A DNA stretch of 64,000 bases from a virus (lineage: Duplodnaviria; Caudoviricetes), in the IMG/VR virus record IMGVR_UViG_3300028805_000057, positions 83,895 through 147,894 of that record; one strand, written 5' to 3'. This document shows positions 15,345-43,165 of this stretch, piece after piece (position 1 is the first letter of the stretch; every line of letters begins with the position of its first letter). Both the position numbers and the translations under genes were made by a program. Under the pieces are notes generated by a model that did not search any database, had not been told where the DNA came from, and saw nothing but the letters and a program-made list of their open reading frames with translations.

Positions 15345-16064
15345 TTGAAATTTTTTATGATAGCATTTCGTGATTTAACAGGTCAAAAATTTAATATGTT
15401 AACCGTTCTTTACAGATATGAAATAGATGCTCCAAATGGAGATTCACGGTGGGTCTGCTCGTGTGAATGTGGCGGTACAACGATAGTAACTGCATCAAAT
15501 TTAATATATAATGGTGTTAAAAGCTGTGGATGTTTAAAAAGAACGAATCATTTTAAAATACATGGTGATTGGAATAGCAAACTTTATACTAGATGGCGAA
15601 GTATGATACGACGTTGTGAAGATCCCAATTTTCCATCTTATAATAATTATGGTGGTCGTGGTATACAAGTATGTCCAGAATGGCATAATTATGAAAATTT
15701 TAGAGATTGGGTAAATAGTACTCAAGATGATCCAAGTTTAACATTAGATAGAATTGATGTAAATGGTAATTATGAACCTAATAATTGTCGTTGGGCAACA
15801 CAAAAAACACAACAAAATAATAAAAGAAATAATATTTATGTAACATATTTTAACGAAACTCATTCATTAAAAGAATGGTGCGATATATTAAATTTACCAT
15901 ATGATCTAGTTTATCGTCGTATAAGTCGTTTAAATTATGATTTCTGGAGAGCAATTTCAACCCCTCTTCCTGACCATTATTATGAAGATTGTTATGACTA
16001 TGATTATTCAAATGAATATTATGAAGATCCATATGAATATGACAATTACATATATGATGAGTAA
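15345..16064 (+). CDS. HNH homing endonuclease
   Basis: DLTGQKF..LTV, CSCECG, KSCGC, YGGRGI.VC.EW, LTLDRIDVNGNYEPNNCRWAT..Q.NN motifs. Confidence 0.9.
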   Translation: MKFFMIAFRDLTGQKFNMLTVLYRYEIDAPNGDSRWVCSCECGGTTIVTASNLIYNGVKSCGCLKRTNHFKIHGDWNSKLYTRWRSMIRRCEDPNFPSYNNYGGRGIQVCPEWHNYENFRDWVNSTQDDPSLTLDRIDVNGNYEPNNCRWATQKTQQNNKRNNIYVTYFNETHSLKEWCDILNLPYDLVYRRISRLNYDFWRAISTPLPDHYYEDCYDYDYSNEYYEDPYEYDNYIYDE

Positions 16065-27152: not shown

Positions 27153-27312
27153 AGAAGGTTGTTTATTGGCAGAAGATAAAATGTATGGTGTAATTTTACC
27201 AATCTTTAATGAAGATCCTAAGAATTGGGAGTTATTACCTAATTCTCCTTCTGTCAAAGATATTATTAAAGAAAGGGGAATCAGTAAGCATGAATATAAC
27301 ACCTCAACGTGA
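27064..27312 (+). CDS. Hypothetical protein
   Basis: AAGGAGG RBS before ATG 27064 (MTTLEVGKTYK...). Confidence 0.6.
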   Translation: MTTLEVGKTYKNIQSGRTVVILGRLDTLAKEGCLLAEDKMYGVILPIFNEDPKNWELLPNSPSVKDIIKERGISKHEYNTST

Positions 27313-28048
27313 TGCTAAGCCTTATTATGTCGAAGTGAGAGATAATCTTACGCAATATGTCTGGAATATGAATTATCCAACTATTATTACACAAGATACT
27401 ATCAATAAAGCATATAGAGATTGGTATCATAATACAAATGGTAATGTTGGTAAATATAACAAAGCATACTATGATAAGAAACTAAGAGAAGGAGAAGGTA
27501 AGCCTGGTAGTGACTGTTCTGGTATGCATTATGGATTAAGTGGCTATGATAAAACAGCACAGGGGTATTACGATGAATCACCAGAAGACAAAAAAGGAAC
27601 CATTGATAGTATTCCTATTCATGATCTGGTTATTTTGTACCGTGGTCAATCTAAAAGCAAAATAACTCATACTGGTATTTATCTTGGTAATGGAATGACA
27701 ATACATATGGCTAACTCTACTGATAATTGTATATATGAAACTACAGATGCAGGTAAATGGAAATGGTGGAGTTATGCTAAATTTATTGATTACTCCAAAC
27801 CATTAGGAGCAAAACCAATAATCACCAGAGTAATCAAAATAGGTAATAAAGGTATTGATGTTAAACTTTTACAAGACCAGTTAATTAAAAAAGGCTATGA
27901 TCCTGGAAAGATTGACGGTGATTTTGGTTCAAAAACCTATACTGCTCTTAAACATTTCCAAGCAGACAATAATATAGCTGTTGATGGTATTGCAGGAAAA
28001 CAAACTGTTAAATCTTTGGGGATGCTGTGGAGAGGCGGTTCTTATTAA
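27290..28048 (+). CDS. Endolysin: NlpC/P60 peptidase plus C-terminal peptidoglycan-binding domain
   Basis: SDCSG...HTGIYLG..TIH catalytic pattern; G.KG.DVKLLQ..L...GY..G.IDGDFG..T..AL..FQ......DGIAG PG-binding motif. Confidence 0.9.
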   Translation: MNITPQRDAKPYYVEVRDNLTQYVWNMNYPTIITQDTINKAYRDWYHNTNGNVGKYNKAYYDKKLREGEGKPGSDCSGMHYGLSGYDKTAQGYYDESPEDKKGTIDSIPIHDLVILYRGQSKSKITHTGIYLGNGMTIHMANSTDNCIYETTDAGKWKWWSYAKFIDYSKPLGAKPIITRVIKIGNKGIDVKLLQDQLIKKGYDPGKIDGDFGSKTYTALKHFQADNNIAVDGIAGKQTVKSLGMLWRGGSY

Positions 28049-28264: not shown

Positions 28265-28403
28265 AAATATTATGAACATAACCATGTAGAAAATCGCATG
28301 GGATTTATTCATAAATATTTACAAACAAATATTATGAACAGAACCATACCAAAAAACTGCATGGGATTTATTCATAAATATTTACAAACAAATATTATGA
28401 ACA
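28265..28403 (+). repeat. Tandem 62/63-bp hairpin repeat over a start codon
   Basis: aaatattatgaaca at 28265, 28327, 28390; gcatgggatttattcataaatatttacaaac twice. Confidence 0.9.
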
Positions 28404-29965
28404 GAATAATGTTTTATAATAAACTAGATAAGTTTAAGAAAAACCTAGAAGAAAAAAATAGTTTAGAACATAGATTTAGTGATCACGATGGTGTTGATAA
28501 TAAACTTGATACTAATGGAAATAGACCCAGAGAAGTTCATACGAATGAATATAAGGGCACTTTTAATAATACTAGACGTGGTAATTTATCTAGAGCAACT
28601 AAACCTAAGTCTAATTATGGACAGAGTTATTATACAAAGATTGATAAATATTATCCTGATGGTACTGCTAGATACTTCTATTCAAAAGATGAATATGAAG
28701 CATATCAAAATGGGCAGGTGAAAGGTAATAGTGCTAAACATCTTGATCAAATGATGAAAGAAACTGCTGAGAGAAAAGTTATCGAAGATAAAAAGAAACA
28801 ACAAGAAGAAATCTATAGAAAGAATAAAGAAGCAGATGAAGCAAGAGTTAAAGCAGAACAAGAAAAATATGCTAAATTACGTGCTGAAAATAACAAACAA
28901 AAACCTAAGACAAGAGAAGAAGCTGAAAAAGAAGCTATAAAAAGAGAACAAGAAAGAATAAGAAAAGCTGATATTGAAGCTAACAAGAAACCTGAAACTA
29001 AGGCACTTGAACAAGCTGAAGATGAATTAGTAAAACTTAAAGGAAAACAGAATCTTGCTAAGAATCGTGGTTTAGATGACAAAAACAATAAGAAAGAATA
29101 TGATAAGTTGACTAAAGAAATCGAAGCAAAAGAAAAAGAAATTGCTTCAATAAGAAAGAAGATGGCTGATGAAACATTAGCGAATAGAGATAAAGAAATT
29201 AAAGAAGCTACAAAAAGAGAGCAAGAAAGAATAGAAAAAGAAGCTACTGAGAAACTTGAAACTTGGAAAGAAAATATTAAAGATAATATCAATGATTATG
29301 CTCTTGAAGTATATGATAATATTAAGAGATGCGCAAATGATAGAGATGTTTCTTTTAATGTAGATAATCCATTTGTAGATTTATTTAAAGAAGCTCTTAA
29401 GAAATATGATCCAGACTTTGATGGAGATATCGCAGCATACGTGAGACCTTATCCTGGACAAAGTATTGCAGGTATACTTGGCAGTGAATTACTTAAAGAT
29501 GATAAACATACCAAGATTGCTAAGAAAGTTCTTAATGAATTAGAAGATAATTTAGATAAAACTATTGATAAATATACTATTAATGATGAACAATATGATG
29601 ATTTCTTAGATCATCTTAAAGGAAAACAGGAAAAGAATAAAACTGCAGCTATTGATAAAGAAATGGATAATGCAAGAAAATCACTTGAAGCAATGTATAA
29701 TGGTGATGAAAACAGTATTAATCTTGATAAATCTCTTAAGAAAGTACTTGAAACTAAACTTAAAGAAATTGACCCTGAATATGAAAAAGGTAATCTTTAT
29801 AAATATGTAAGACCTTATATTCTTGGTAAATGGTGGAAAGATGATGAATCATATGCTAAAGTTACGGAAGCTCTTAATGAACTTGAAAAAGAATTAAGAT
29901 CTGCAAATAAACATGATGATGCATATGGTGATTTTGTTGAAAAAGTTTCAAAAATACTTGCATGA
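28397..29965 (+). CDS. Leader-tagged coiled-coil protein (putative virion internal protein); start uncertain (28298/28334/28397)
   Basis: MNRIMFYNKL...SLEH leader; YYTKID...RYFYSKDEYEAY motif; K/E-rich helices. Confidence 0.7.
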   Translation: MNRIMFYNKLDKFKKNLEEKNSLEHRFSDHDGVDNKLDTNGNRPREVHTNEYKGTFNNTRRGNLSRATKPKSNYGQSYYTKIDKYYPDGTARYFYSKDEYEAYQNGQVKGNSAKHLDQMMKETAERKVIEDKKKQQEEIYRKNKEADEARVKAEQEKYAKLRAENNKQKPKTREEAEKEAIKREQERIRKADIEANKKPETKALEQAEDELVKLKGKQNLAKNRGLDDKNNKKEYDKLTKEIEAKEKEIASIRKKMADETLANRDKEIKEATKREQERIEKEATEKLETWKENIKDNINDYALEVYDNIKRCANDRDVSFNVDNPFVDLFKEALKKYDPDFDGDIAAYVRPYPGQSIAGILGSELLKDDKHTKIAKKVLNELEDNLDKTIDKYTINDEQYDDFLDHLKGKQEKNKTAAIDKEMDNARKSLEAMYNGDENSINLDKSLKKVLETKLKEIDPEYEKGNLYKYVRPYILGKWWKDDESYAKVTEALNELEKELRSANKHDDAYGDFVEKVSKILA

Positions 29966-29981
29966 AAGGAGAGTGATTAAG

Positions 29982-30251
29982 ATGGATACATCAAGTATTG
30001 CAGTAATTATTGTGGCATTAATCGGCGCAATAGCAACAATAACATCAAATATTGTAATGAACAACAAACAGTCAGCAGCAATGGATGCTAAGTTGGATAA
30101 GCAGCAAGGAATTATTGAAGAACGACTAAGTAATTTAAAAGAATCAGTCGATAAACATAATAACTTTGCTCAGAAAATCCCAGCAATCGAAGCAAATATT
30201 GAAAACATTGAAAAACGAATCGACAAATTAGAAAGTAAATTAATAAAGTAA
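29982..30251 (+). CDS. Membrane-anchored coiled-coil protein (XhlA/holin-like)
   Basis: AAAGGAG RBS; N-terminal hydrophobic helix, VDKHNN motif, coiled coil. Confidence 0.65.
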   Translation: MDTSSIAVIIVALIGAIATITSNIVMNNKQSAAMDAKLDKQQGIIEERLSNLKESVDKHNNFAQKIPAIEANIENIEKRIDKLESKLIK

Positions 30252-30264
30252 GGAAGGAGTCAAA

Positions 30265-30417
30265 ATGGATAGAAATACATTCTTTGATAATCTAAAAAGT
30301 TATAATGCTAACTCCTTACATAATAATATTACTAACAAACATGCTAGTAATAGATTCGAGTTTTATGATTCATTACAACACCATGGAATGAGAGGAAGTA
30401 AAAAGAAATCAAAATAG
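30265..30417 (+). CDS. 50-aa leader-only mini-gene (not in ORF track)
   Basis: AAGGAG RBS; MDRNTFFDNLKSYNANSLHNNITNKHASNRFEFYDSLQHHGMRGSKKKSK. Confidence 0.65.
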   Translation: MDRNTFFDNLKSYNANSLHNNITNKHASNRFEFYDSLQHHGMRGSKKKSK

Positions 30418-30431
30418 GGGGTTAAATAATC

Positions 30432-31313
30432 ATGGATAGTTTTGAATTTTATTATAATCTTGATTCATATAATAAAAACTCCTTGAGACATAAATCGGAG
30501 TCCTCTCTTAAAGGTACACAAAAAGAAAATGTTAAATACTTTAAGAGAGAAGGTACTCCTGGTAATTACAAATATTATTATACAAAAGAAGAATACGAAG
30601 CTTCTAAGAAACCTGAAAATAAAGTAGATGTTGTAACAAATGTTAAACCTACTTTACAAGCTAATAAAACTTTTAATAAGAAAAAGAAAGTATCTCATAA
30701 GTCATTATATACACCTATGCAACAAGCTAAGAAAATAAATAATGCTAAGATGAATAAACAATATGATAAGAAATTTGTAGATGTTGTACAAGGTAAAGAT
30801 AAAATGACATCTGAGGAAAGAGTAGAAGAATATAAAAACTATTTACAAGATCCTGAGAATTACAATGAAGATACATATATAGAAAACAGATTAACAAAAC
30901 TTGGTGAAGGTGGAAATGTTAATCTTAATCTTCGACCTGAGATTTCTACACAAGAATTAATAGATGCAAAATGGCCTGAAAAAGAAGTAGGCGAAGGATA
31001 CGCTACAGTATTTTCAAGTACATTTTCAAATGAAGGTGACACAGAATTTTATAACTTTACTCCGATTGTTATGGATCCTAAAACTGGTGAGTATCTTGGT
31101 TGTATGGATCCTGAAGAATTTAAACAGTATTGTTATGATGTAATTGATGGTATAAGAGAAGATGATAAGAATTGTCAAATAGGTGGAGCATTTACTGGTG
31201 AAAATGCAAAAGATTTGGCAGAAAAAGCAGCTATAGAAATTCATGATTTACATGAACAGCAACATGTTAATGAAGAGAATAAAAAGAAAAATAAATCAAA
31301 CAATTCAAAATGA
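30432..31313 (+). CDS. Leader-tagged protein with C-terminal GNVNLNLRP..ATVFS domain
   Basis: MDSFEFYYNL...SLRH leader; KYFKREG...KYYYTKEEYEA motif. Confidence 0.75.
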   Translation: MDSFEFYYNLDSYNKNSLRHKSESSLKGTQKENVKYFKREGTPGNYKYYYTKEEYEASKKPENKVDVVTNVKPTLQANKTFNKKKKVSHKSLYTPMQQAKKINNAKMNKQYDKKFVDVVQGKDKMTSEERVEEYKNYLQDPENYNEDTYIENRLTKLGEGGNVNLNLRPEISTQELIDAKWPEKEVGEGYATVFSSTFSNEGDTEFYNFTPIVMDPKTGEYLGCMDPEEFKQYCYDVIDGIREDDKNCQIGGAFTGENAKDLAEKAAIEIHDLHEQQHVNEENKKKNKSNNSK

Positions 31314-31331
31314 GGGGGTCCTGGTAAAAAT

Positions 31332-32249
31332 ATGTTACAAAAAGAATTCTATACAAAATTAGAAATGGCAAGACAAAAGCAGGACTCCTTACAACATCAT
31401 GGTATTAAAGGTCAGAAGTGGGGTGTAAGGCGTTTCCAGTATATGGATGGTTCTTACACCCAAGCTGGCCGTGAAAGATATGGTTATGGTCCTGCAAGAC
31501 AACCAAAACAAGAAGATGATAAAGTTGGTGTTATGATACCTATTCCTTCAGCTGCAGTTCCACCAATATTGGCTGCTGGTGCTGCTATTTTAGGAGTAGA
31601 ATTAGGATTATCTACAATAGGTGATGCTATACATAATGCTAAAGTTTCGAAAGATATTAAGAATTGGGAGGCAAATCGAGCAAAAGAAGAAACTGATCCT
31701 AAGACTGGTCTTAAACTTAAATCTGATCCAAATGCTTCTGTTAAAGATGATATGAAAATGATTAACAGAGAATATGGATATGGAATGTTTGCTAAGGCGA
31801 TTTGGGATATTGATTCAAAGAAATCAATGGGTCATACAGAAAATTGTATGCTTTGTACAACTGCTTTGGATCTTAAGAGAAGAGGATATGACGTTAAAGC
31901 CGGTTCAAGTAAAGATGGATACTATGCTAAAGATGTTGCTAATTGGTATAAAGAAAAGAAACAACCTACTATGGGCAAATTTAATAGCATTATAGAACAG
32001 CTTAATAAACAACCTGAAGGTTCTTATGGAAACTTTATGGTATACTGGAAAGAAGGCGGTGGGCATTCTATGTTTTACAGGATTGAAGGTGGTAAACCTG
32101 TAATATATGATGCTCAGTCTAACAAGAATTATACAATATATGAAATTTCAAATCATATAAATAATTCAATTCCAGGACATTGTTTCTTAAGAACAGATAA
32201 CTTAACACCGGATTACGATTATTTAAAGAAGAATAATATTATAGCCTGA
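31332..32249 (+). CDS. Leader + HHGIKGQKWGVRR domain + papain-fold toxin (glutamine deamidase-like), copy A
   Basis: NCMLCTTA..L.RRGYDV.A, GGHS, YDAQ, RTDNL: Cys-His-Asp pattern of Tox-PL family. Confidence 0.75.
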   Translation: MLQKEFYTKLEMARQKQDSLQHHGIKGQKWGVRRFQYMDGSYTQAGRERYGYGPARQPKQEDDKVGVMIPIPSAAVPPILAAGAAILGVELGLSTIGDAIHNAKVSKDIKNWEANRAKEETDPKTGLKLKSDPNASVKDDMKMINREYGYGMFAKAIWDIDSKKSMGHTENCMLCTTALDLKRRGYDVKAGSSKDGYYAKDVANWYKEKKQPTMGKFNSIIEQLNKQPEGSYGNFMVYWKEGGGHSMFYRIEGGKPVIYDAQSNKNYTIYEISNHINNSIPGHCFLRTDNLTPDYDYLKKNNIIA

Positions 32250-32375
32250 ACGAAGTAAAAAGCTCAGCCTGTGATTGATTTTGAGCAGGGTGGCATAGAA
32301 CGAATGTTTAGGATAAAGAATTTGGTTTTCAGAATGAAAAGCAATTATTATTGCATAGGAGGGTTCAAAATAAGT

Positions 32376-33977
32376 ATGAATAGATATGAATTCTATGGAA
32401 ATATTAATACATACAGAAAAAATCAATCAAATAAAGAAAATGAATTAACTCACTACGGAACTCTCGGTCAAAAATGGGGTGTTCGTAAGTGGCAGAACTA
32501 TGATGGTACTTTTAATGAGGCTGGTAAGGAAAGATATTTTGGAACTAAGAAAGCTAAAAATGAAGAAAAAATAAATTCAAAATATCAAAATAAAGATGGT
32601 TCTTTAACACAAGAATATATAAATAAAATTCAAAAATTAACTAATGAAGGTAAATTTGATGAAATTGAAAAACTTAAAAAACAAATAGATTTTGATAAAG
32701 TACAAGAATGGTCTAAGAAAACAAATCCGAATTTATATAAAATGCCAGATTTTAGTGATCCTTCAGAATATGAAGGAGATTTTGAATCATATGTTGAAGA
32801 TAATTGGGAAACTGCAGCTAAGAAAAGAGGGTTCGATCTTGATGATATTTTAACAGATGAACAATATGAAATAATTAATCAGGATATGAAGGATTATTTT
32901 AATAGTCATGAAGAAAAAATAGGTTCTGTCTTTAATAAAAATTTAAGTGAAGAAAAGAAAGATAAATTACGAGAAAAATTATATTCACGTGATAGTGAAA
33001 TGCTTACTATAGATCAATTATATGATGAAGATGAACAGAAATATTTATTAAATAAAAAAGTTTCTAAAAAAGTTAATAAATTAGTTGATTGTTTGACTAA
33101 AGGTGATTTTGATGAATATAATAAAATATTAGAAGATGTTGACCCAGAACATTTACAAACAGTAAAGAATGCTGCACAAGATTTAGCCAATACAAAACAA
33201 TTAAGAAATGTCGATACATCTAGATTAACTGAAGTTTCAAAAGATATTTTTGGAAATGATAATATATTAGGTGTTCAAAGTATTCTTGCAATGACAAATA
33301 GTGATGACATTAATGCACATTCATCAAATAGAGTGTATCCAGTAGATATACGACAGTCAATTATAGATAATAGTACTCTATTAAAAACTGCTATATTAGA
33401 ATATGAAAGAGGCTATAAAGATGGATACGAAAGAGATATACAAATTGCTTCTGGCGGTGATGAACGCCGTGCAAAATATATGAAACAGTTTGTTGATGAT
33501 GTCGAAGCTGTTAAAGAATACTCTAAAGATTCTAAAGAAATTAATGATGAATTACGTAAGTTAAAAACAAAAGAATCTTGTGACGATAAAGCTTTTATTA
33601 ATTATCATTATACAGAAGCTTTATATGATAATATGCGTAAATATATAAATGATGATTTTCCTGTAAGACTTAAAAAAGGAACAAATGATGCTAAGAAAAT
33701 GGTTAATAATCTTTATAAAAACTTTGAAAAATATTCAAAAGAATTTAAAGAAGATTTATATTATCAATTATTAGATTACTATGATGATGAATATATTTCA
33801 AAATCTGAATTTATGAAAGAAATAGGAAAAATCAATGCTGTTGAAATGTATGGTAATGGTAATATAACTTTTACTTATACAGTACCAGGTGAAATGGGAT
33901 ATGATATGGTTAATATAAATGGCAATATAAACGATAATGGGAAACTTACAATAGATGATGCTGATTTTATTGATTAA
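32376..33977 (+). CDS. Leader + HYGTLGQKWGVRK domain + helical region + DUF2262-like C-terminus, copy A
   Basis: AGGAGG RBS supports ATG 32376; paralog of 35515..37029. Confidence 0.7.
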   Translation: MNRYEFYGNINTYRKNQSNKENELTHYGTLGQKWGVRKWQNYDGTFNEAGKERYFGTKKAKNEEKINSKYQNKDGSLTQEYINKIQKLTNEGKFDEIEKLKKQIDFDKVQEWSKKTNPNLYKMPDFSDPSEYEGDFESYVEDNWETAAKKRGFDLDDILTDEQYEIINQDMKDYFNSHEEKIGSVFNKNLSEEKKDKLREKLYSRDSEMLTIDQLYDEDEQKYLLNKKVSKKVNKLVDCLTKGDFDEYNKILEDVDPEHLQTVKNAAQDLANTKQLRNVDTSRLTEVSKDIFGNDNILGVQSILAMTNSDDINAHSSNRVYPVDIRQSIIDNSTLLKTAILEYERGYKDGYERDIQIASGGDERRAKYMKQFVDDVEAVKEYSKDSKEINDELRKLKTKESCDDKAFINYHYTEALYDNMRKYINDDFPVRLKKGTNDAKKMVNNLYKNFEKYSKEFKEDLYYQLLDYYDDEYISKSEFMKEIGKINAVEMYGNGNITFTYTVPGEMGYDMVNINGNINDNGKLTIDDADFID

Positions 33978-34013
33978 AATTTTTTAAAAGAAAAATCAAA
34001 ATGGAGGAATATT

Positions 34014-34283
34014 ATGGGCAATGACTTAGTAGGTCAGGCTATTGAAGCTATGAAAAAATATAGACCTGAAAAAACAGTAATAAAGATTTGGAATAAAGGT
34101 AAGTCATGTCTTATACTTGCTGCAAAGAATCCTAAAGAATACCAAATGGAGATGGATCCTTATTATATATTTGCTGAGGGTGCTATCTCCGGTATCTCTT
34201 ATTTGGATAATGCTGTCAAGTTAAAAAAGATAATGAAACCAGAGTATATAGCATACACTCGAAAGGAGCTTGGAAATGAATAG
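34014..34283 (+). CDS. Small leaderless protein, candidate immunity protein A
   Basis: GGAGG RBS; KKY.P..VI.I...DPYY...G.I.G shared with 35237..35497. Confidence 0.6.
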   Translation: MGNDLVGQAIEAMKKYRPEKTVIKIWNKGKSCLILAAKNPKEYQMEMDPYYIFAEGAISGISYLDNAVKLKKIMKPEYIAYTRKELGNE

Positions 34284-34337
34284 CTATACTATACAAAAAG
34301 CGTATAGCAGATCCATTCATTATGAAAGGAGTAATAA

Positions 34338-35225
34338 ATGAATAGAATAGAGTTTTATTCAAGTTTAAATAAATATAAAGATATTCAAGAGAAATCTGAT
34401 AATGAATTAAAACACTATGGCATAAAAGACCAGAAATGGGGTGTAAGACGTTGGCAGAATCCTGATGGTACATTTAATGCTGAAGGTAAGTTAAGATATT
34501 TCGGTGCTCAGCCTAAAGAAGGTAGTGTAACTGCACTTGCTGGTGTATTTGCTCTTTGGGGTGCAGAATTAGCTTTGTTAGTTGGCGGACCAGTGACTGC
34601 ATATGCAATACAAGATGCTAAAACTACAAATAAAATAAAGAAATTTGAAGCAAATTTAGCAACAGAAAAAACAGATCCTGAAAGTGGATATAAATTAAAG
34701 AATGAAAAAATGTCTAAAAATACTACAAAAGAAGACATGTCATATGTAAATATGGAACAACAATATGCTGGTATGAAACAAAAGAATAGAGATGCTAAAG
34801 AAGGAACTAGTATGAATTGTTCTTTATGTACTACTGCAATGGTTCTTAGACAAAAAGGATATGATGTACGTGCTGGTAAGACTAAAGAAGGTACATCATA
34901 TCAAGAACAAGAAAAACGTTATAAAGGTGGCAAGTTTACATTAGGAACATTCAAAGATATTATAAAAGAACTCGAAAAACAACCTGAAGGTTCTTACGGA
35001 CATTTCTCTGTTGAATGGAGAGAAGCTTATGGTGGAGCTCATAGTATGTTTTATAAGATTGAGAACGGCAAACCTGTAATATATGATTGTCAAGTTAATC
35101 AAGTTGTTAAACCGAAAAATTTATATAAAAATGCTTCGCCTCTTGAAGATAAGACTAAGTTTATGAGATGTGATAATCTCGAAGTTAATTGGGATTATAT
35201 AAAAGAGAATAAACTTGTACACTAG
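34338..35225 (+). CDS. Leader + HYGIKDQKWGVRR domain + papain-fold toxin, copy B
   Basis: NCSLCTTA..L.QKGYDVRA, GAHS, YDCQ, RCDNL; paralog of 31332..32249. Confidence 0.75.
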   Translation: MNRIEFYSSLNKYKDIQEKSDNELKHYGIKDQKWGVRRWQNPDGTFNAEGKLRYFGAQPKEGSVTALAGVFALWGAELALLVGGPVTAYAIQDAKTTNKIKKFEANLATEKTDPESGYKLKNEKMSKNTTKEDMSYVNMEQQYAGMKQKNRDAKEGTSMNCSLCTTAMVLRQKGYDVRAGKTKEGTSYQEQEKRYKGGKFTLGTFKDIIKELEKQPEGSYGHFSVEWREAYGGAHSMFYKIENGKPVIYDCQVNQVVKPKNLYKNASPLEDKTKFMRCDNLEVNWDYIKENKLVH

Positions 35226-35236
35226 GAGGAAATAAT

Positions 35237-35497
35237 ATGAATATAATAGATGAAATTAAAGATGCTTTCAAAAAATATAATCCTGATTTATATGTAATAG
35301 CAATATTTATTGCAGAAAAAGATTTATATTTTGTAGTTGCAAAACATACTCCCGATAAAACAACAGTTGAAGAAGATCCTTTCTATATGTATGGAAATGG
35401 AAAAGTTACTGGTGTTACAATAACAGATTCTGAAGAAAGAATGAATAATGCATTTGAAATTATGCAAGCAAAGAATCGTATTTATGAAATTGATTGA
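35237..35497 (+). CDS. Small leaderless protein, candidate immunity protein B
   Basis: Directly downstream of toxin B; KKYNP..VIAI...DPFY...G.V.G. Confidence 0.6.
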   Translation: MNIIDEIKDAFKKYNPDLYVIAIFIAEKDLYFVVAKHTPDKTTVEEDPFYMYGNGKVTGVTITDSEERMNNAFEIMQAKNRIYEID

Positions 35498-35514
35498 AAG
35501 GAGGGAGTCTTCAA

Positions 35515-37029
35515 ATGAATAAAATAGAATTCTTAGCAAATATAGATAAATATAAAGGCGAAGATCATTCTACTTTCCTTCAGCATTACGGAATCTTAGG
35601 ACAAAAATGGGGACAGCGTAGATGGCAAAATCCTGATGGCACTTTTAATGAAGAAGGTAAGCAAAGATATTTTGGTCAGAAATCAAACAATATAAGTTCT
35701 GAAGAAAAGATTGGTGGTTATACTGCAGATCATTTTCACAAAAATATTTATTTAAAGACTGACAAGAATACTCTTAAGAAAATTAAGAAGTATCCTGATA
35801 TATATGATACAGAAGGTTTAACTGATGATGAAATATTAAAAGCTGTTAGACGTGTTCCTAAGATACCTAATGCTAGAGCATATGGTAGAGAAATTAGAGA
35901 AGAACTTTATAATACTCAATTGAATAAGACAAGATCTAAGTATTACGAGACAAATACTAAAGATATTCTTGAAGCTGAAGATGTTGAAGAGCAAAAGATT
36001 GGTGGTTGGACAGATCATGGTAAAAAGATTGATGAATTATATCCTAATGATAATGGACATTTATATAGTGATAATCTTTACACATCTGATGAACAAGAAT
36101 ATTTTATGAATGAAAAAAATGCTAATAGAATAAATAAAATGGCTAAGTATGCTATGGAAGGTAATACTAAAAAGTATGATAAATTAATGGATAAAATTGA
36201 TGACAAATATAAAGATACAGTAAGAAGAGCAGTTCTTGATATTGAAGATGGTATAGATAATAAAGCTAATAATAAAAAAGGCAGAGAACTTTCTAAAGAA
36301 ATAGGACTTGGAGAAGTTGATTTAAATGCAATATTAAGAAATCGATATAAAGATGATGAACGAATGTATTCAATTAAAGATCGTGATATGATTCGTAATA
36401 ATATGGATACTATAATGACAGCAGTTAAGAAACTTAAAAATCAAGATATTAATGGATATTATGATGAAGTTGAAAAGATAGCTCGTACTGGTGAAGATAA
36501 AGATACTATTGATAGATTTGTAGATGACTATATTAGTATTAAATCATATATTGATGAAGGTAAAAAACTAGATAAAGAATTAAAAAATATGAAAAATATT
36601 CAAAGTAAATGTAAATATCCAATTGATTATGATACAGACGCAAGAGACTTTATGTTCTCAGAATATACAAAAGACTATAGATCAATTCAAGAAAAGATGC
36701 AAGATCCTAAAATACATAGAGACGGACAAAAAGTTATTAATAATCTTAATAAAAACTTTGATAAATATGTTGATCAATTTAAAGATAAAGTTGTTGAAAA
36801 TCTTTATGAAGATTATAAAGATTGGCATGCTGATGATGACAAGATACTATCTAAACAGCAATTTAAGAATGCCATTGGTAAAGTAAATAGTGGTAGTATT
36901 GATGATACTGGATATTTACAATTATATCTTGAAGATAATGGTTTATTCTATGGACATGTATTTACAAGTCTTGGAGTTATAGATGATAACGGTAATCTTA
37001 AAGTTGAAGATGTATTCTTAGAAGGTTAA
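35515..37029 (+). CDS. Leader + HYGILGQKWGQRR domain + DUF2262-like C-terminus, copy B
   Basis: RBS supports ATG 35515; C-terminal DNGLFYGHVF..G.IDDNG......LEG resembles DUF2262. Confidence 0.7.
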   Translation: MNKIEFLANIDKYKGEDHSTFLQHYGILGQKWGQRRWQNPDGTFNEEGKQRYFGQKSNNISSEEKIGGYTADHFHKNIYLKTDKNTLKKIKKYPDIYDTEGLTDDEILKAVRRVPKIPNARAYGREIREELYNTQLNKTRSKYYETNTKDILEAEDVEEQKIGGWTDHGKKIDELYPNDNGHLYSDNLYTSDEQEYFMNEKNANRINKMAKYAMEGNTKKYDKLMDKIDDKYKDTVRRAVLDIEDGIDNKANNKKGRELSKEIGLGEVDLNAILRNRYKDDERMYSIKDRDMIRNNMDTIMTAVKKLKNQDINGYYDEVEKIARTGEDKDTIDRFVDDYISIKSYIDEGKKLDKELKNMKNIQSKCKYPIDYDTDARDFMFSEYTKDYRSIQEKMQDPKIHRDGQKVINNLNKNFDKYVDQFKDKVVENLYEDYKDWHADDDKILSKQQFKNAIGKVNSGSIDDTGYLQLYLEDNGLFYGHVFTSLGVIDDNGNLKVEDVFLEG

Positions 37030-37042
37030 GGGAGGACCCTAA

Positions 37043-39436
37043 ATGACTAACAAAGAAATTCATGAAATGATTAAAAAATATGAATCAAAATGGGGACGAC
37101 TTGGGCATACTAATATTATGAGACCTGAATTAAATCACTCAGGAGAAGAAGGAGGAACAACAATGTCAAGCATGACTAATGATTTAATAGCATTTAGACA
37201 GAAAGTTGCTGCAGGTAGAGAAGCTAATAGACTTGCTCATAAATCAACTGTCAATGTTACAGATATTAATAGAAGATATTTTGAAGAGATTACCACAAAT
37301 GGTACTTTGATACATGCTGGAACTAATCAGCAAAACTACAAATACTATCAGAAGATAGATCTTGGTAATGGTCAGTCAAGATATTTCTATACTAAGGAAG
37401 AATGGGACGCTTACCAGAATGAAAAGAATGGTAAGAAACAGTCTACCGGTGGCGCTGAGAAAGTTCGTCAGATGCATAATGAGAAAGAATCTAATCTCCA
37501 GGGCATGATTAAAGATGGCGATTACTATGAAAAAGGTGAAGATGGTAAATTCCATAAGACTGATAAGAAATGGGATGATGTTAGAAAGCAGGCCATTGAA
37601 GAAGCTGATAACAAGATAATTGATGCTGCTAAAGAAGGTGGATATGAAGCTGCTAAGAAAGCTATCTTTGATGATGATCGTATGCTTGAAATGTTTGGCC
37701 AGTTTGAAGGCGGATTTGAGAATCATGGCTGGGAGCTTAATGATGATGACTCGATTACTGGTATGGATGATAATGATGAAAAGTACTTCAAGGAAATGGA
37801 AACTTGGCTTCGTAGCTTCAAGGATTCTACCGGTATAGATATTTATAAGAATCCCGATTTCCAGAAGTCTGTAATGGATGAAATTCGTAAGAGATATAAT
37901 CTTATGAAGAATCAGGCTAAGGAAAGAGAATCAAAAATCGAAGGAACTAAGAAGTATGCTACTCCTGAAGGTGCTGGTAAGAAGTCTGAAGAGAAGAAAG
38001 AAGAGACCACTAAGTCTGAAGAGAAGAAAGAAGAGACCACTAAGACCGAAGAGAAGAAGACTGAATCTAATAGCGGATCAGACTTTGATAAGAAGTTGAA
38101 TGAAACCATTACAAATGAAGGTTCTGATGCCACAGCTGATTATATCATTAATAACTCACCTGAATTTAAGGCTTATGCAAATGCTCTTCGTAAGGCTGTT
38201 GCTGATGGCAAGATTAAAGTATATCGTGATGGCGGAATGACTGGTAAGGAAAATAAAGAACTTGCTAGCACATTTGATCCGTTACTCGAAGACCTTGATG
38301 CTTTATTACAGAAAGCTGCTAAGAATCCAGACTTTGATCGTAAGGGTGTTGAGAAGCTTATCAATAAGGAATTTGAGAATATTGCTGCAGCTGCAACAGA
38401 GGATAAATATGGTGTAAGAGACAATACTAAGAAGTTTGTAAAACATTCCTTAGAAGAGCCTGAAATCATGGATGAGTATTCAGCATTTATGGAAAGAGTT
38501 AAGAAGGGTAGAGAAAAGAATAAACTTGCTCATTCTATAATGATTTCTCCTTCTGATTTAAATGCTAGATACGAGCAGTCCATTAAAGATCATTGTTTCT
38601 TAATTCATAGTGGCAATTTCAAGTATTACAACAAGATTGACTTAGGTAATGGTAATACAAGATATTTCTATACTAAGGCCGAGTGGGATGCTTATCAGAG
38701 AGAAAAGGGTTCTAAGACTAATACTGATCAGAAGCTTTCCAAAGAAACTTTAAAGCAGATCGAACAGCAAAAGCAGAAGAAAGCAAACTATGATAATAAT
38801 GCTGAAGCTGCTAAACATGAAGGCGACAGATGGCAGAAGAAAGAAGAGCCTAAGCCTAAAGTTACTGTTGAAACAATTGTAGTTGATGTAAAGAAAGATC
38901 CTAATTTTACAAAAACTGTAGATACTGTTAAAGCAGCAATTGATAATGGAGATATATCATATGTATATGATAAGCCCATTGTTAATATTGATAAGAAAAC
39001 TGGTAAACTAAGTGAAGCTGGTATGAAAGCTAATGAAGCTTGGCAGAATCTCTATAAGTCATTTAATGATTTATCGTCAAAGAATAAAGAAAATGGTTTA
39101 TCATATGAAGATGTTAAAGGCGCTTTAATGGATGCTTTTAATTCTGAATTAAAGAAAGCTCAATCTTCAAATAAGTCTGGATCTGATGATAAGCCAAAAG
39201 ATTCAAATCCTGATAACTTAGGCTTTGATAAGATGAAAGAAGGAATGACTCAGGAAGAATTTAATAAGGCATTGAAGGATGCTAGAGATTCTATTGATTT
39301 CGATAAGATGACAAATGAGATATCCGAAGTTATCAATGACCAGTTCAAGAATGTGGATCAAAGCGTTCTTGATGGCATTAAAGATCAGGTAACAAAAGAA
39401 ACTGAAAAAATGTTAAAGAATAAATTAGGTTTCTAA
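37043..39436 (+). CDS. Internally duplicated LxH-rich polyprotein-like virion protein
   Basis: Two copies of AF..(K/R)V..GRE.N.LAH...LIH.G..KYY.KIDLGNG..RYFYTK.EWDAYQ; six (L/V)xH sites. Confidence 0.75.
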   Translation: MTNKEIHEMIKKYESKWGRLGHTNIMRPELNHSGEEGGTTMSSMTNDLIAFRQKVAAGREANRLAHKSTVNVTDINRRYFEEITTNGTLIHAGTNQQNYKYYQKIDLGNGQSRYFYTKEEWDAYQNEKNGKKQSTGGAEKVRQMHNEKESNLQGMIKDGDYYEKGEDGKFHKTDKKWDDVRKQAIEEADNKIIDAAKEGGYEAAKKAIFDDDRMLEMFGQFEGGFENHGWELNDDDSITGMDDNDEKYFKEMETWLRSFKDSTGIDIYKNPDFQKSVMDEIRKRYNLMKNQAKERESKIEGTKKYATPEGAGKKSEEKKEETTKSEEKKEETTKTEEKKTESNSGSDFDKKLNETITNEGSDATADYIINNSPEFKAYANALRKAVADGKIKVYRDGGMTGKENKELASTFDPLLEDLDALLQKAAKNPDFDRKGVEKLINKEFENIAAAATEDKYGVRDNTKKFVKHSLEEPEIMDEYSAFMERVKKGREKNKLAHSIMISPSDLNARYEQSIKDHCFLIHSGNFKYYNKIDLGNGNTRYFYTKAEWDAYQREKGSKTNTDQKLSKETLKQIEQQKQKKANYDNNAEAAKHEGDRWQKKEEPKPKVTVETIVVDVKKDPNFTKTVDTVKAAIDNGDISYVYDKPIVNIDKKTGKLSEAGMKANEAWQNLYKSFNDLSSKNKENGLSYEDVKGALMDAFNSELKKAQSSNKSGSDDKPKDSNPDNLGFDKMKEGMTQEEFNKALKDARDSIDFDKMTNEISEVINDQFKNVDQSVLDGIKDQVTKETEKMLKNKLGF
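37982..38059 (+). repeat. 30-bp coding tandem repeat (KSEEKKEETT x2.5)
   Basis: aagtctgaagagaagaaagaagagaccact twice plus partial. Confidence 0.9.
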
Positions 39437-39439
39437 AAA

Positions 39440-39482
39440 TCAAAATGGGTACCTGGATAATTTCTGGGTACCCTTATTTTTT
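39440..39482 (+). terminator. TCAAAAT + hairpin terminator before tail-tip gene 1
   Basis: gggtacctgga..tctgggtaccc then T-rich tail. Confidence 0.7.
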
Positions 39483-39571: not shown

Positions 39572-42500
39572 ATGAAATGGAACTACGATGATTCTATAAG
39601 AGATGAATTTAGCAAGGGACCGCATAGAGATATTCTCATAGTTCCTCATGCTACATATGTTACTCCAGTATCTGGTGGGCCTCCTGAAATAAAATCTAAG
39701 GTCCCTCAGTATATGTGGATTCCAATGCCTGTACCGATATGGGATGCTAAGGAAAAGAAGATGACGATTGTTACAATCCAACAGCCTTTTCCTAAGAAAG
39801 ATCCAAGTACAGGTGAAGTATTAAGAGAAGATGTAGAGTGGGTTATCACGAATGATGATATTATTAAAGAAAAGTTTAAATATTCTCATTCACTTAATTC
39901 GGAATCCAACTTAACATTCTCTTCTTGTAATGCTGCAATGGTACAATTTACCATAAGAAATAAGAAACAATATATACAAGAATTAGATGAACAGGGCGAA
40001 CCTACAGGAGAATATTACTGGGAACAAGAAATACCAAATTTACAAAACTATGAATTTGTAGAGAAGGACCCTGATGGTAATAGTAGAAAGATAGTTGGTG
40101 AATTATCTGGTAATGCTTGTATTAAAGTCTATACATACATAAATGGTGACTCAAGTACATTAATGTATTTAGGAATGTTCCAAGTTGAAGAAGATAAGAT
40201 GGTTGATAATGGGTATAACCGTCAAATTACTGCATATGACTTCATGGCATTCTTCAGAGATTGCGACATATTCTATTGGTATAAGCATCTCTGGACAGGT
40301 ATAAATAAACTGGACAATGACTTTGAAGACTATACAAGTGATAGTGATGAAGAAAAGAAGAAACCTGATGATTATGATGCTGAAGTTAACTGGGTAAGAA
40401 AACCGGCAAAAGATTTATATCCAAATAGAGATGGTAGATGGACTATAGGTGAAGCATTAAGGGATCTATTTGAAAACTTTGCGGCTTATGATATGATTAC
40501 TTATGATGAGGAAGAAATCGAAGTAGAGGATCCGGATACTCATGAAAAGAAAAAAGTTAAGACAACTGTAGCAAAATTAGGTAATACCGTAACAAACCCA
40601 AATAACTATGGACGAAATTATGAAGAAGGAACTGGTTATACAGGATTAGGTATGCCTGTAATGTTAGATCCTGATTTATATGATAATACAAAAGAATATA
40701 GTATACCAACAGAACCAGGTGCAGATCAATATGAATGTTATGGTTACATGGATGCTTTAGATATTGAATTTTATCAAGATCCGAATATAATGAAGTCAGA
40801 ATCTTTAAGTATGGGCAAATTCCTTGAAGATATTGGATTATTAGCTGGTAGATATCCTTATATCAGAACTGATCACTTACAAGATGATGATTGGTTTGAT
40901 CCTGCAACTAAAACAGGAAATCAAAATAGATATAATAATTATGAGAAATGTATTTTAACATTTAAACCTCTACCATCAAGTAAAGATGATAGCAAATTAC
41001 CTACTGATCAAATGTTGGATAATACAGAAATCAGTAAAGGATTTAGTCATGAATCTTATACTGTTGATGATATTGAGATAGTTAAGATAAATTTCCAAGA
41101 TAAAAGTAAGATTGAATATTCAAGACTTACGGCAAGTCAGAGAAAAGATAAGAAAACAGGTAATGTACAAACATTTACTTTTAGTGATAATATATTTGTT
41201 TCATACCTTGTCGAAAAATCTGATAATGAAGAAATTAAAAAGAAATTAGAGAATTATAAAGCATTAAAATTAAAGATATTTGGTAAAAACAATAAAAAAG
41301 GTAATATGAGTTCTACAGCATTATTTGCACAGGGATATTACAATATGAAATATAGAAGTTATGTCCCTTATGAACTTACAACCTATGCAGACCCTGTACG
41401 AGATGTCGGTGATAGAATAAAGATAACTTATACCGATGTCATCACAGGAGAATATGTAAGCTTTTTCTCATATATTCTTGAACGAGAAATGAATGGTATT
41501 CAGAAATGCCTGGATACTTACAAAGCTCAAGGTGATGGTCTTAATCCAGTATTTAGTAATTACCAAAGCGGTTCAAAGTATCAAAGTGGTTCAAGTTATG
41601 CTGCAAGTTCTTTCGGTTATAATGCTGTATATAGTGGAACTGGTTCCGGTGGATCAAGTGGCTCTGGTGCATTAGGAATTACTCCAAGTGACTTAGTACA
41701 GTATTGGCGAAACTTTGGTATAAGACTCTTAGATGAACCTAGTGACTGTCAAGCGAAGTTTGTTAAGGGAAGTGAACAAGGAGATCCTACTGCAGAACAT
41801 TATATATACAATATAAGTGGTGGTGAAACTAGTAGTATTAAAGATGGTAATACTACTAATCCAATATTATATGAACCTGGTGATGGTACTGGTACAAAGG
41901 AAGCGACTGTAACTGCCGGTGATTATGTTGATTGGGTAGAAGATTATCAGCACGATGATCTGATAGTACCAAGTTTTATTGACTATCCTTTATATGTTTA
42001 TACATTAAATAGTGAATGGAAATATGTTGGTAATGGCTATACAATGGGAGATGGCGGTTGTAATTTTTATGATAGTTCTAATGCTGAAATTATATTAAGT
42101 GATGGAACTATTGTAGAAGATGATACTGATATTGAAGGTAAAGCAGATGATACTCTAATTATTAAATTAAAATCTGGAACTCCGTATTATAAATATAGAT
42201 ATACTAATACAAGTTTTTATAGATATGCATCTGAAGATTGGGGTTTACCTTATACTACAAAAGAAGAATTAACAACTTCTGCAAGTATAAAAGTTGAACC
42301 TGGTGATACTATATGGGGTGCCGGGCAATGGTATTGTATTTATCAATATCCAGGAGTATGGGTTATTGCAGGTCATTATCCACAACTAGATATTCCAGTA
42401 ACACAAACAACTAAAAAATACATCTCACTCAAATGGTCTGATCCTCAAGATATTATAGACTGGAAACCTACACCTGCAACATGGGAAGGTACAGTAATTG

Positions 42501-43165
42501 TAAGGAAAGAGAACTCAGCACCACTTCATAGATGGGACGGAGAAAAAGTTGTTCGTACTACTACAAGAGATAAGTATAAGACTAAAGCATATAAAGATGA
42601 AGATATTAAAGCAAATAAAGTATATTACTATGGATTCTTTCCATATTATACAAAGATTGCCGATCCTGATCATCCTATAAGATTTTATACATTCACTAAG
42701 TCTATTAGAGTTGAGACTGGTATAGTTGCTCATCCTGCGACGATTACTAATTTGATAGTTTCTCATTTGGAGATTACTGTAGTATATGAAATACCATCTA
42801 TTGCTGCTGGAGTAAAATATAAATCAGTTACATTAGTTGGTAAAAAGAATGAAGCACCGGTTGACGAAACTGATGGTGATATTATTTTACCATTGGAGGA
42901 ATCATCTACTCAAGCAGTTATTGATGGTCTTGAACAAACTACAAGATATTACTTTATAATATTCTCTAAGGATACTGATGATGTTGTAGTATCATCTAAT
43001 TGTATGGATGCTATGACTACATATCCTCCAAAGATATTTGCTGAGATTATAGAAACTAGAAATGATCCTTATGATAGTGATTTCTTTACAGAGAGTATAG
43101 AAGCTGTTGGAATGCCATCAGAAAGTAATTTCTTTACTGAAATTATTAATGTTACACAAGGATAA
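39572..43165 (+). CDS. Tail-tip/baseplate hub protein with FN3-like domains, paralog 1
   Basis: LGMFQVEED..RQITAYDF, YVPY.L...DP.RDVGDRI, YILER...G....DTY.A.G hub motifs; LKWSDP...W.GT.IVRKE...YYYGFFPY FN3-like domain. Confidence 0.7.
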   Translation: MKWNYDDSIRDEFSKGPHRDILIVPHATYVTPVSGGPPEIKSKVPQYMWIPMPVPIWDAKEKKMTIVTIQQPFPKKDPSTGEVLREDVEWVITNDDIIKEKFKYSHSLNSESNLTFSSCNAAMVQFTIRNKKQYIQELDEQGEPTGEYYWEQEIPNLQNYEFVEKDPDGNSRKIVGELSGNACIKVYTYINGDSSTLMYLGMFQVEEDKMVDNGYNRQITAYDFMAFFRDCDIFYWYKHLWTGINKLDNDFEDYTSDSDEEKKKPDDYDAEVNWVRKPAKDLYPNRDGRWTIGEALRDLFENFAAYDMITYDEEEIEVEDPDTHEKKKVKTTVAKLGNTVTNPNNYGRNYEEGTGYTGLGMPVMLDPDLYDNTKEYSIPTEPGADQYECYGYMDALDIEFYQDPNIMKSESLSMGKFLEDIGLLAGRYPYIRTDHLQDDDWFDPATKTGNQNRYNNYEKCILTFKPLPSSKDDSKLPTDQMLDNTEISKGFSHESYTVDDIEIVKINFQDKSKIEYSRLTASQRKDKKTGNVQTFTFSDNIFVSYLVEKSDNEEIKKKLENYKALKLKIFGKNNKKGNMSSTALFAQGYYNMKYRSYVPYELTTYADPVRDVGDRIKITYTDVITGEYVSFFSYILEREMNGIQKCLDTYKAQGDGLNPVFSNYQSGSKYQSGSSYAASSFGYNAVYSGTGSGGSSGSGALGITPSDLVQYWRNFGIRLLDEPSDCQAKFVKGSEQGDPTAEHYIYNISGGETSSIKDGNTTNPILYEPGDGTGTKEATVTAGDYVDWVEDYQHDDLIVPSFIDYPLYVYTLNSEWKYVGNGYTMGDGGCNFYDSSNAEIILSDGTIVEDDTDIEGKADDTLIIKLKSGTPYYKYRYTNTSFYRYASEDWGLPYTTKEELTTSASIKVEPGDTIWGAGQWYCIYQYPGVWVIAGHYPQLDIPVTQTTKKYISLKWSDPQDIIDWKPTPATWEGTVIVRKENSAPLHRWDGEKVVRTTTRDKYKTKAYKDEDIKANKVYYYGFFPYYTKIADPDHPIRFYTFTKSIRVETGIVAHPATITNLIVSHLEITVVYEIPSIAAGVKYKSVTLVGKKNEAPVDETDGDIILPLEESSTQAVIDGLEQTTRYYFIIFSKDTDDVVVSSNCMDAMTTYPPKIFAEIIETRNDPYDSDFFTESIEAVGMPSESNFFTEIINVTQG

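Follow-up and report, generated by a model that had tools for sequence, protein, structure and literature searches.

To our knowledge, few of the phage-injected proteins that decide the first minutes of infection have been described beyond those of T4, P1 and N4 and the MuF toxins. Internal proteins of T4, together with Alt, carry a capsid-targeting sequence that is cut by the gp21 prohead protease. Alt itself is an enzyme injected with the DNA (PMC5512222). In temperate phages, MuF polymorphic toxins are found with downstream immunity genes (Jamet et al. 2017, PMC5576092), and MuF-Tox-PL1 architectures and an Imm35 partner are already known (Zhang et al. 2012, PMC3482391). Here, we examined a 64,000-nucleotide stretch (hereafter the window; bases 83895 to 147894) of IMG/VR virus record IMGVR_UViG_3300028805_000057, a 147,894-bp genome that is complete by CheckV, in which two genes, ToxA and ToxB, most likely encode Tox-PL1 enzymes and two small genes, smallA and smallB, encode their candidate inhibitors.

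The Tox proteins are built like MuF toxins. These are head-module proteins whose N terminus addresses them to the virion and whose C terminus is a toxin domain, in some architectures of Zhang et al. Tox-PL1; the next small open reading frame (ORF) is the presumed immunity gene, and injection with the DNA has been proposed. Unlike MuF toxins, they have no MuF domain (PF04233; none in the whole 147.9-kb genome at E ≤1). Instead, a leader of ~35 residues, the DUF7211 tag with a leucine-x-histidine (L-x-H) motif, would address them as cargo; several tagged cargo genes are present per phage, and the partner is PepSY-like and at times fused in cis. As judged from sequence, the pair would work like a MuF toxin and is not a member of that group. 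What appears new relative to the known systems is that a DUF7211/L-x-H leader replaces MuF, that the partner is PepSY-like (in trans and in cis), and that the pair is duplicated with diverged, putatively private inhibitors. Six genes were considered:

31332 to 32249, + strand: ToxA, 305 amino acids (aa); leader, DUF7211 core, hydrophobic segment and Tox-PL1 domain
32376 to 33977, + strand: bigA, 533 aa, putative tagged cargo; start at ATG 32376 (ORF list: GTG 32271)
34014 to 34283, + strand: smallA, 89 aa, untagged, PepSY-like; family profile match at E 1e-18
34338 to 35225, + strand: ToxB, 295 aa; leader, DUF7211 core, hydrophobic segment and Tox-PL1 domain
35237 to 35497, + strand: smallB, 86 aa, untagged, PepSY-like; family profile match at E 5e-23
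35515 to 37029, + strand: bigB, 504 aa, putative tagged cargo; start at ATG 35515 (ORF list: TTG 35494)

ToxA and ToxB (40% identity, E 8e-68), smallA and smallB (28% identity, E 9e-12), and bigA and bigB (29% identity along their full length, E 3e-45) were each similar to one another, a paralogy that is, on these alignment scores, far beyond chance. Both Tox proteins matched Pfam Gln_amidase (PF15644) above its cut-off of 24.1 bits, ToxA at 35.1 bits (E 3.1e-8) and ToxB at 33.2 bits (E 1.2e-7). Tox-PL1 is defined by an NC-H-DxQ signature (Zhang et al. 2012, PMC3482391), and the conserved residues of both proteins agree with it, being N171, C172, C175, H245, D260 and Q262 in ToxA and N160, C161, C164, H235, D250 and Q252 in ToxB. 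Across an alignment of 75 homologs, N171, C172, H245, Q262, R287 and D289 (ToxA numbering) were invariant and C175 and D260 nearly so (D260 in at least 90%), with the signature likewise kept in ToxB. Upstream of the enzyme domain, ToxA has L20-Q21-H22 in its leader, a DUF7211 core at residues 17 to 53 and a hydrophobic segment at ~66 to 95, followed by the papain-fold domain at ~125 to 303; ToxB has L24-K25-H26 in its leader, then the DUF7211 core, a hydrophobic segment at ~62 to 90 and the Tox-PL1 domain. Kyte-Doolittle hydropathy in 19-residue windows reached 1.78 in ToxA (from residue 71) and 1.97 in ToxB (from residue 64). At least 565 relatives of Tox were found in a search of 5.8 billion proteins, most of which share the architecture of tag plus Gln_amidase domain.

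The AlphaFold2 (AF2) model of ToxA had an overall predicted local distance difference test score (pLDDT) of 81, exceeding 90 across the catalytic domain. Assignment of its fold needed VIA-align (VIA), an exhaustive structural comparison; Foldseek gave no match in the PDB at E ≤0.001 for the ToxA model or the small-protein model. The best structural neighbor by VIA was SpvD (Z 12.1, root-mean-square deviation 2.8, 146 residues aligned), and 11 more papain-like chains scored Z ≥8, including a chain deposited as YopQ (Z 10.2), the C39 peptidase domain of PCAT1 (9.5), PeiR (9.1), Citrobacter rodentium CdiA-CT (8.7), and OspI (8.6). Signature and model together indicate that ToxA and ToxB are most likely Cys-His-Asp enzymes of the Tox-PL1 family with a papain fold, and that they would act as peptidases or as glutamine deamidases. 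Cpe1/Cpi1 and CdiA-CT (PDB 8ssm, 9l5u), which share the papain-like fold with ToxA at Z 8.5 to 8.7 and include its top Foldseek match, are experimentally proven antibacterial protease toxins of the cytoplasm with adjacent, coevolving immunity genes (PMC12136450), but belong to a sequence family different from that of ToxA and ToxB. An earlier note on this DNA, made from the sequence alone, had proposed a paralogous pair of papain-fold enzymes bearing the NC/H/D(xQ) signature, each composed of tag, hydrophobic helix and catalytic domain and accompanied by paralogous, leaderless proteins of ~87 aa. All of this was borne out, and a papain fold, the lack of which the note had named as telling against its proposal, is indeed predicted.

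To place the small proteins, a locus set was assembled from 80 viral loci, fetched with the Tox alignment, and 12 metagenome-contig loci; 90 loci, including the genome studied here, were analysed. Directly downstream of 34 of the 46 distinct Tox genes lay a gene of the small family (67 to 115 aa), a further seven had such a gene elsewhere in the locus, and in three the small-family domain was fused to the N terminus of the Tox protein itself, ahead of the tag. Using a hidden Markov model (HMM) derived from ORFs adjoining Tox genes, the family was detected in 40 of 42 Tox loci and in none of 48 tagged loci without Tox (Fisher p 1e-23). When 1.8 billion representatives were searched with the family profile, ~1050 small-family clusters emerged, nearly all of them stand-alone proteins of 71 to 112 aa. 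A word-based homology search with smallB found only six close relatives. Neither smallA nor smallB carries a tag.

PepSY was the sole recurrent Pfam family among the relatives, matched by 17 of 146 members at E ≤0.01 and above the gathering score in one, the partner encoded in L029 (32.1 bits, cut-off 24). Imm35 (PF15567), the known partner family, had no match among 33 members at E ≤1, nor among 146 at E ≤0.01. The AF2 model of smallB (pLDDT 90.9) has an H-E-E-E-E-H topology, with a helix packed against a four-stranded sheet; its weak VIA matches comprised YpmB, UipA, FoxB and cystatins (Z 4.2 to 4.5) and the DsbC N-domain (Z 4 to 5), and structure does not settle the fold class because matches reach only Z 4 to 5. 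On sequence grounds, the family is probably a divergent PepSY-like branch, of which the copies in the window fall below the Pfam threshold. PepSY pro-peptides of M4 peptidases and cystatin-type inhibitors of papain-like proteases resemble what is predicted for the small proteins, namely a helix on a four-stranded sheet, a peptidase-inhibiting role and both cis and trans forms; the known associations of PepSY are, however, with metallopeptidases and wall hydrolases rather than with Tox-PL1. Bacterial Tox-PL1/Imm35 pairs share with the present pair the catalytic family, the NC-H-DxQ signature and a dedicated small alpha+beta partner that is a predicted peptidase inhibitor, but are delivered by type VI or type VII secretion systems or Rhs, where a phage is proposed here, and the partner here lacks an Imm35 match. 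A Longin match of the small proteins (E 0.025) was rejected as single-member noise, and weak matches of the small-family profile to cadherin and desmoglein sequences in the PDB were judged spurious, being due to a 'V-x-K-x-T-G-x-V'-like motif that also accounts for giant repetitive proteins among the representative matches.

Gene order alone pairs smallB with ToxB, after which it starts by 12 bases, but bigA stands between ToxA and smallA. In the related loci L090 and L091, orthologs of ToxA (84 and 70% identity, respectively) and smallA (74 and 58%) were both retained, again separated by one or two genes, while no orthologs of ToxB or smallB were present, their place being taken by another Tox gene accompanied by a small gene of its own. 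This pattern of joint retention and joint absence therefore pairs ToxA with smallA and ToxB with smallB. For the catalytic domain of ToxB with smallB, complex modeling gave an ipSAE of 0.82, compared with 0.03 for the best of three controls; three runs shared at least 92% of contacts, with partner pLDDT at least 90. The predicted interface on ToxB takes in residues 158 to 162 (with N160 and C161), 226 to 236 (with H235), 250 and 252, that is, the catalytic residues, and is led on the smallB side by the variable beta2-beta3 loop (residues 41 to 49), which is placed in the ToxB catalytic cleft. The model thus supports, and does not prove, occlusion of the ToxB active site by smallB. Cpi1, in contrast, blocks substrate binding and leaves the active site unoccluded. 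Co-occurrence, adjacency and the predicted complex together support the small leaderless proteins as specific partners of Tox.

The large proteins do not appear to belong to this unit. GGAGG-type ribosome-binding sites precede all six genes, and because of those ahead of ATG 32376 in bigA (AGGAGGG) and ATG 35515 in bigB (AAAGGAGGGAG), these positions are most likely the true starts rather than 32271 and 35494. DUF2262 (PF10020) was matched by bigB at 32 bits (cut-off 29.8, E 2.1e-7; domain at ~36715 to 36966), and a structure search in the Atlas returned DUF2262 clusters for bigB at template modeling (TM) scores of 0.70 to 0.72. The end of bigA is DUF2262-like only by paralogy, its C-terminal 170 aa matching bigB at E 4e-10. 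No homolog of bigA or bigB was present among 87 more distant related loci, and their counterparts in L090, the closest of the relatives compared, kept only the first ~190 to 200 residues (72 and 68% identity), with the C termini replaced. Our literature search found no paper mentioning DUF2262. As far as gene content tells, the conserved unit is one of two genes, Tox and the small protein, and bigA and bigB more likely represent additional tagged cargo whose C termini are exchangeable, outside the toxin-inhibitor unit. The earlier note had instead read the locus as a duplicated three-gene module; that reading fails because bigA and bigB are without a homolog in the 87 loci. Its tagged, DUF2262-like proteins stand for bigB, above the cut-off, and for bigA through paralogy alone, and Foldseek, which it recommended, gave no PDB match at E ≤0.001 for the ToxA and small-protein models, the Atlas search adding structural support for DUF2262 in bigB. 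What it took for a different gene order in the two copies more plausibly reflects a ToxA-smallA pair with one cargo gene between them, since two relatives have kept both ToxA and smallA.

All four tagged proteins matched DUF7211 (PF23847), although only ToxA passed the cut-off in the protein scan (E 5.3e-7 for ToxA, 5.9e-6 for bigB, and 1.8e-4 for bigA); in the genome scan, scores were 33.1 bits for ToxA, 30.4 for bigB, 26.9 for ToxB (27.6 with neighbors) and 26.0 for bigA, with a cut-off of 27. An H-x-G...W-G-x-R core was invariant across the four. Over 238 proteins, the consensus of the tag was (D/N)-E-L-x-H-[HY]-G-[IV]-[KL]-G-[QM]-K-W-G-V-R-R-[YF]-Q-N-x-D-G-[ST]-L-T-x-A-G-x-x-R-Y, starting mostly inside the first 20 residues. 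Its opening has H at position 0 in 100% and, two residues earlier (position -2), L or I in 98%. Certain Tox genes have in place of the tag a second leader (K-Y-Y-K-R-E...Y-Y-Y-T-K-E-E-W), which also contains L-x-H. No paper mentioning DUF7211 was found in the literature search.

Consistent with a head-cargo role for the tag, which agrees with the earlier note's reading of tagged cargo, the ~80 related phages each had one to nine tagged genes, flanking the large terminase gene (TerL) or lying between TerL and portal, frequently with a tagged protein immediately upstream of TerL. In these relatives, the Tox gene and its partner were found mostly just ahead of the portal gene. DUF7211 proteins number six in the genome studied here. 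The genes of two, at genome positions 74621 to 75976 and 76528 to 78276 (L001:10622-11977 and L001:12529-14277), stand immediately ahead of the large terminase gene, and one of these two proteins contains a region resembling a GTP-binding domain (phrog_289, E 9e-7). Among cultured phages, the tag was found in only two. Faecalibacterium phage FP_oengus encodes its tagged gp69 between terminase and portal; ORF7 of Lactococcus phage 1706 matches DUF7211 at E 7e-11, immediately precedes the terminase gene and carries the annotation 'structural protein'. In cultured actinophages, Tox-PL1 forms part of head-module genes beside the portal or near the terminase, followed by ORFs of ~100 aa that were not detected by the small-family HMM. 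Such ORFs of Arthrobacter phage Bumble and Mycobacterium phage MiculUcigas (L093:4236-4544 and L094:2313-2627) share by eye an 'M-x-x-F-D-E-A-R-A ... V-N-K-E-T-G-E' pattern with the small family, and Bumble gp5 gave a sub-threshold Imm35 match (E 0.15).

The L-x-H motif recurs in the head itself. The prohead protease of this phage is fused to the major capsid protein (genome 81431 to 83842; L001:17432-19843) through a very acidic linker of ~200 aa that is rich in [LIV]-x-H-[SA] (IEHS, LEHS, LSHA, LIHS and others), which are candidate maturation cleavage sites. In a set of 39 fusions of this kind, [LIVMF]-x-H accounted for 92% of the His residues of the acidic linker, compared with 45% elsewhere, the density of the motif per 100 residues was 3.3 in the linker and 1.1 elsewhere, and one site lay directly before the capsid body in 39 of 39. 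In the cis fusions, two L-x-H sites separate the PepSY-like domain from the tag core, and a cut there would detach the inhibitor. The phage also encodes a YonO-type RNA polymerase (974 aa, genome 70101 to 73025, L001:6102-9026; phrog_4291, E 0) with the half-tag S-L-Q-H-Y-G-T-P-R-H-S-G-R-Y-P-W-G at its N terminus, suggesting that the polymerase may be head-loaded as well. The T4 leader is likewise short, N-terminal and present on unrelated proteins, and ends in a prohead-protease motif of head proteins, a likeness seen here at the level of sequence. The T4 motif is L/I-x-E, however, rather than L-x-H, and the sequences are unrelated. Unlike in T4, a conserved 30-residue core would stay on the mature protein, and the predicted capsid is of the HK97 type and has its protease in fusion with the capsid protein.

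The reading that we favor, with slightly more confidence than doubt, is a Tox enzyme that is loaded into the head, processed at a His site and delivered to the host by ejection, with an inhibitor, supplied in trans or in cis, keeping it inactive. During late infection, each Tox enzyme would be made alongside its own inhibitor, which would block the catalytic cleft, and the leader would bring the enzyme into the assembling prohead, where the capsid-fused protease would cut behind the His of L-x-H. Because it is leaderless, or in the cis forms would be severed from the enzyme, the inhibitor would not be retained in the head. At the next infection, the mature enzyme would exit together with the DNA and modify a protein of the new host cell; its hydrophobic segment may keep it at the membrane. 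In the producing cell, the small protein would act as an immunity protein or as a pro-domain in trans (in cis in some relatives). Of the earlier proposal that it is an immunity protein staying behind, the specific partnership with Tox stands; the cis fusion lies upstream of the tag with L-x-H between, and the small protein may therefore be a removable, pro-domain-like inhibitor as much as an immunity protein. The reading builds on fold, family, signature, paralogy, linkage, cis fusions, gene context and motif statistics; binding, by way of the complex model, as well as packaging, cleavage, ejection, toxicity and target we infer. A bolder version, which we hold tentatively and lean against, is a zymogen system tied to capsid maturation, in which a PepSY-like pro-domain would plug the toxin until the head protease cuts L-x-H, and a variable arsenal of enzymes, the RNA polymerase included, would be loaded via one leader and delivered active. 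If true, DUF7211 plus L-x-H would be a general, portable cargo-loading code for HK97-type heads.

The locus represents a large uncharacterized family that combines a recognizable catalytic toxin domain, a dedicated putative inhibitor and a short addressing leader, and offers a directly testable model for how siphoviruses of gut Firmicutes might load, silence and deliver enzymes. The small proteins would constitute a new immunity or pro-domain family for Tox-PL1, and the leader, if it works as proposed, a compact tag with which to load foreign proteins into phage heads.

Several observations weigh against this reading. In this genome, the Tox genes lie downstream of the tail and lysis genes, outside the head module. 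The hydrophobic segment is present in only 18 of 46 Tox family members, and targeting to the membrane is therefore not a general property. Co-occurrence of Tox and the small family arises partly by construction because the HMM was built from Tox-adjacent ORFs; the absence of the family from the 48 non-Tox loci does not. No Pfam threshold was reached by smallA or smallB themselves, nor did either match PepSY (PF03413), and the fold match of smallB is weak, with a best structural Z ≤5.2. The complex score expresses the model's own confidence, and its calibration is only roughly valid here because the complex run used our own alignments. In that calibration, 58 of 80 solved complexes attained the 0.82 mark, as did 2 of 110 mismatched pairs. 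Cleavage at L-x-H by the head protease is deduced from motif statistics.

The same features admit other explanations. Tox-PL1 might be a virion-borne entry enzyme, a helix-anchored cell-wall peptidase that opens peptidoglycan during ejection, with the PepSY-like protein regulating or stabilizing it and no toxin involved. YpeB, for instance, regulates or stabilizes the spore lytic enzyme SleB, and PepSY domains are tied to the control of extracytoplasmic hydrolases; both Tox copies have the hydrophobic segment between tag and enzyme, and the pseudomurein endoisopeptidase PeiR (Z 9.1) and NlpC/P60-type MepS (Z 5.5) are among the structural neighbors. We consider this unlikely, as the nearest matches in fold and sequence (SpvD, CdiA-CT/Cpe1, OspI, and Pfam Tox-PL1) act in the cytoplasm, the segment is confined to the 18 members noted above, an endolysin-like gene is already present at 27209 to 28048, and a wall hydrolase has no obvious need for a tight cytoplasmic inhibitor of its active site. 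Somewhat less likely still is that Tox-PL1 is a peptidase of the cargo system itself, trimming leaders or freeing cargo during head assembly or ejection. Zhang et al. proposed such a 'releasing' role for MuF-linked Tox-PL1 (PMC3482391), and Arthrobacter phages have homologous domains in 'capsid maturation protease' genes beside the portal. However, tags and L-x-H were found in all related loci and Tox-PL1 in only 42 of 90, the capsid-fused protease of every phage can explain processing, and two diverged copies with private inhibitors suit a conflict enzyme better than a housekeeping one.

That the pair is never packaged, being an intracellular toxin-antitoxin or a lysis-released, bacteriocin-like module, with DUF7211 serving, for example, in terminase or DNA binding, would fit the position of the Tox genes after the lysis genes and the frequent placing of a tagged protein just upstream of TerL, where a small terminase is expected. 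It is nevertheless improbable given up to nine tagged genes per phage with unrelated C termini, nearly always in the TerL-portal block, the structural annotation of the tagged phage 1706 protein, the sharing of L-x-H between the tag and the protease-capsid linker, and the half-tag on the RNA polymerase. Hardly any weight attaches to the small proteins being Tad2-like anti-defense sponges unrelated to Tox. This idea draws on one Pfam match of smallA (E 0.18), which was rejected as single-member noise (1 of 33 members, far under the cut-off), and the family was found only with Tox genes, with PepSY as its sole recurrent match.

The genome is that of a low-GC (guanine plus cytosine) siphovirus with almost every gene on one strand. 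Upstream of the window lie the YonO-type RNA polymerase, large terminase, portal and protease-capsid fusion genes; the window itself contains the major tail protein, a tape-measure-sized gene (2538 aa) and the endolysin-like gene, beyond which a gene run from 28298 to 39436 ends at a strong terminator-like hairpin (39447 to 39473). A promoter scan performed no better than on shuffled sequences, and no match to the region turned up when 50,697 phage records were searched at the nucleotide level. Neighboring genes at window positions 28298 to 29965, 30432 to 31313 and 37043 to 39436 bear the second leader type, M-x-x-x-EFY..L..Y...S-L-x-H and then Y-K-Y-Y-x-K...R-Y-F-Y-T-K-E-E-W-D-A-Y, which is present twice in the 797-aa protein; a weak match to phrog_349, 'virion structural protein' (E 0.008), was also seen, and other Tox-PL1 genes of L090 and L091 are headed by the same leader. 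The start of a 50-aa ORF at 30265 to 30417 resembles that of an intact 369-aa DUF7211 protein of L090 (L090:5990-7099) and stops straight after L-Q-H-H-G-M-R-G, so that it looks like the truncated remnant of a cargo gene. Past the cargo array are three paralogs of ~1200 to 1300 aa (phrog_18190; 39572 to 43165, 44424 to 48281, and 48362 to 52264), the first just 3' of the hairpin, a GGGTACC terminator. An HNH endonuclease gene (15345 to 16064; phrog_374, E 5e-72) is located within the tail-gene block.

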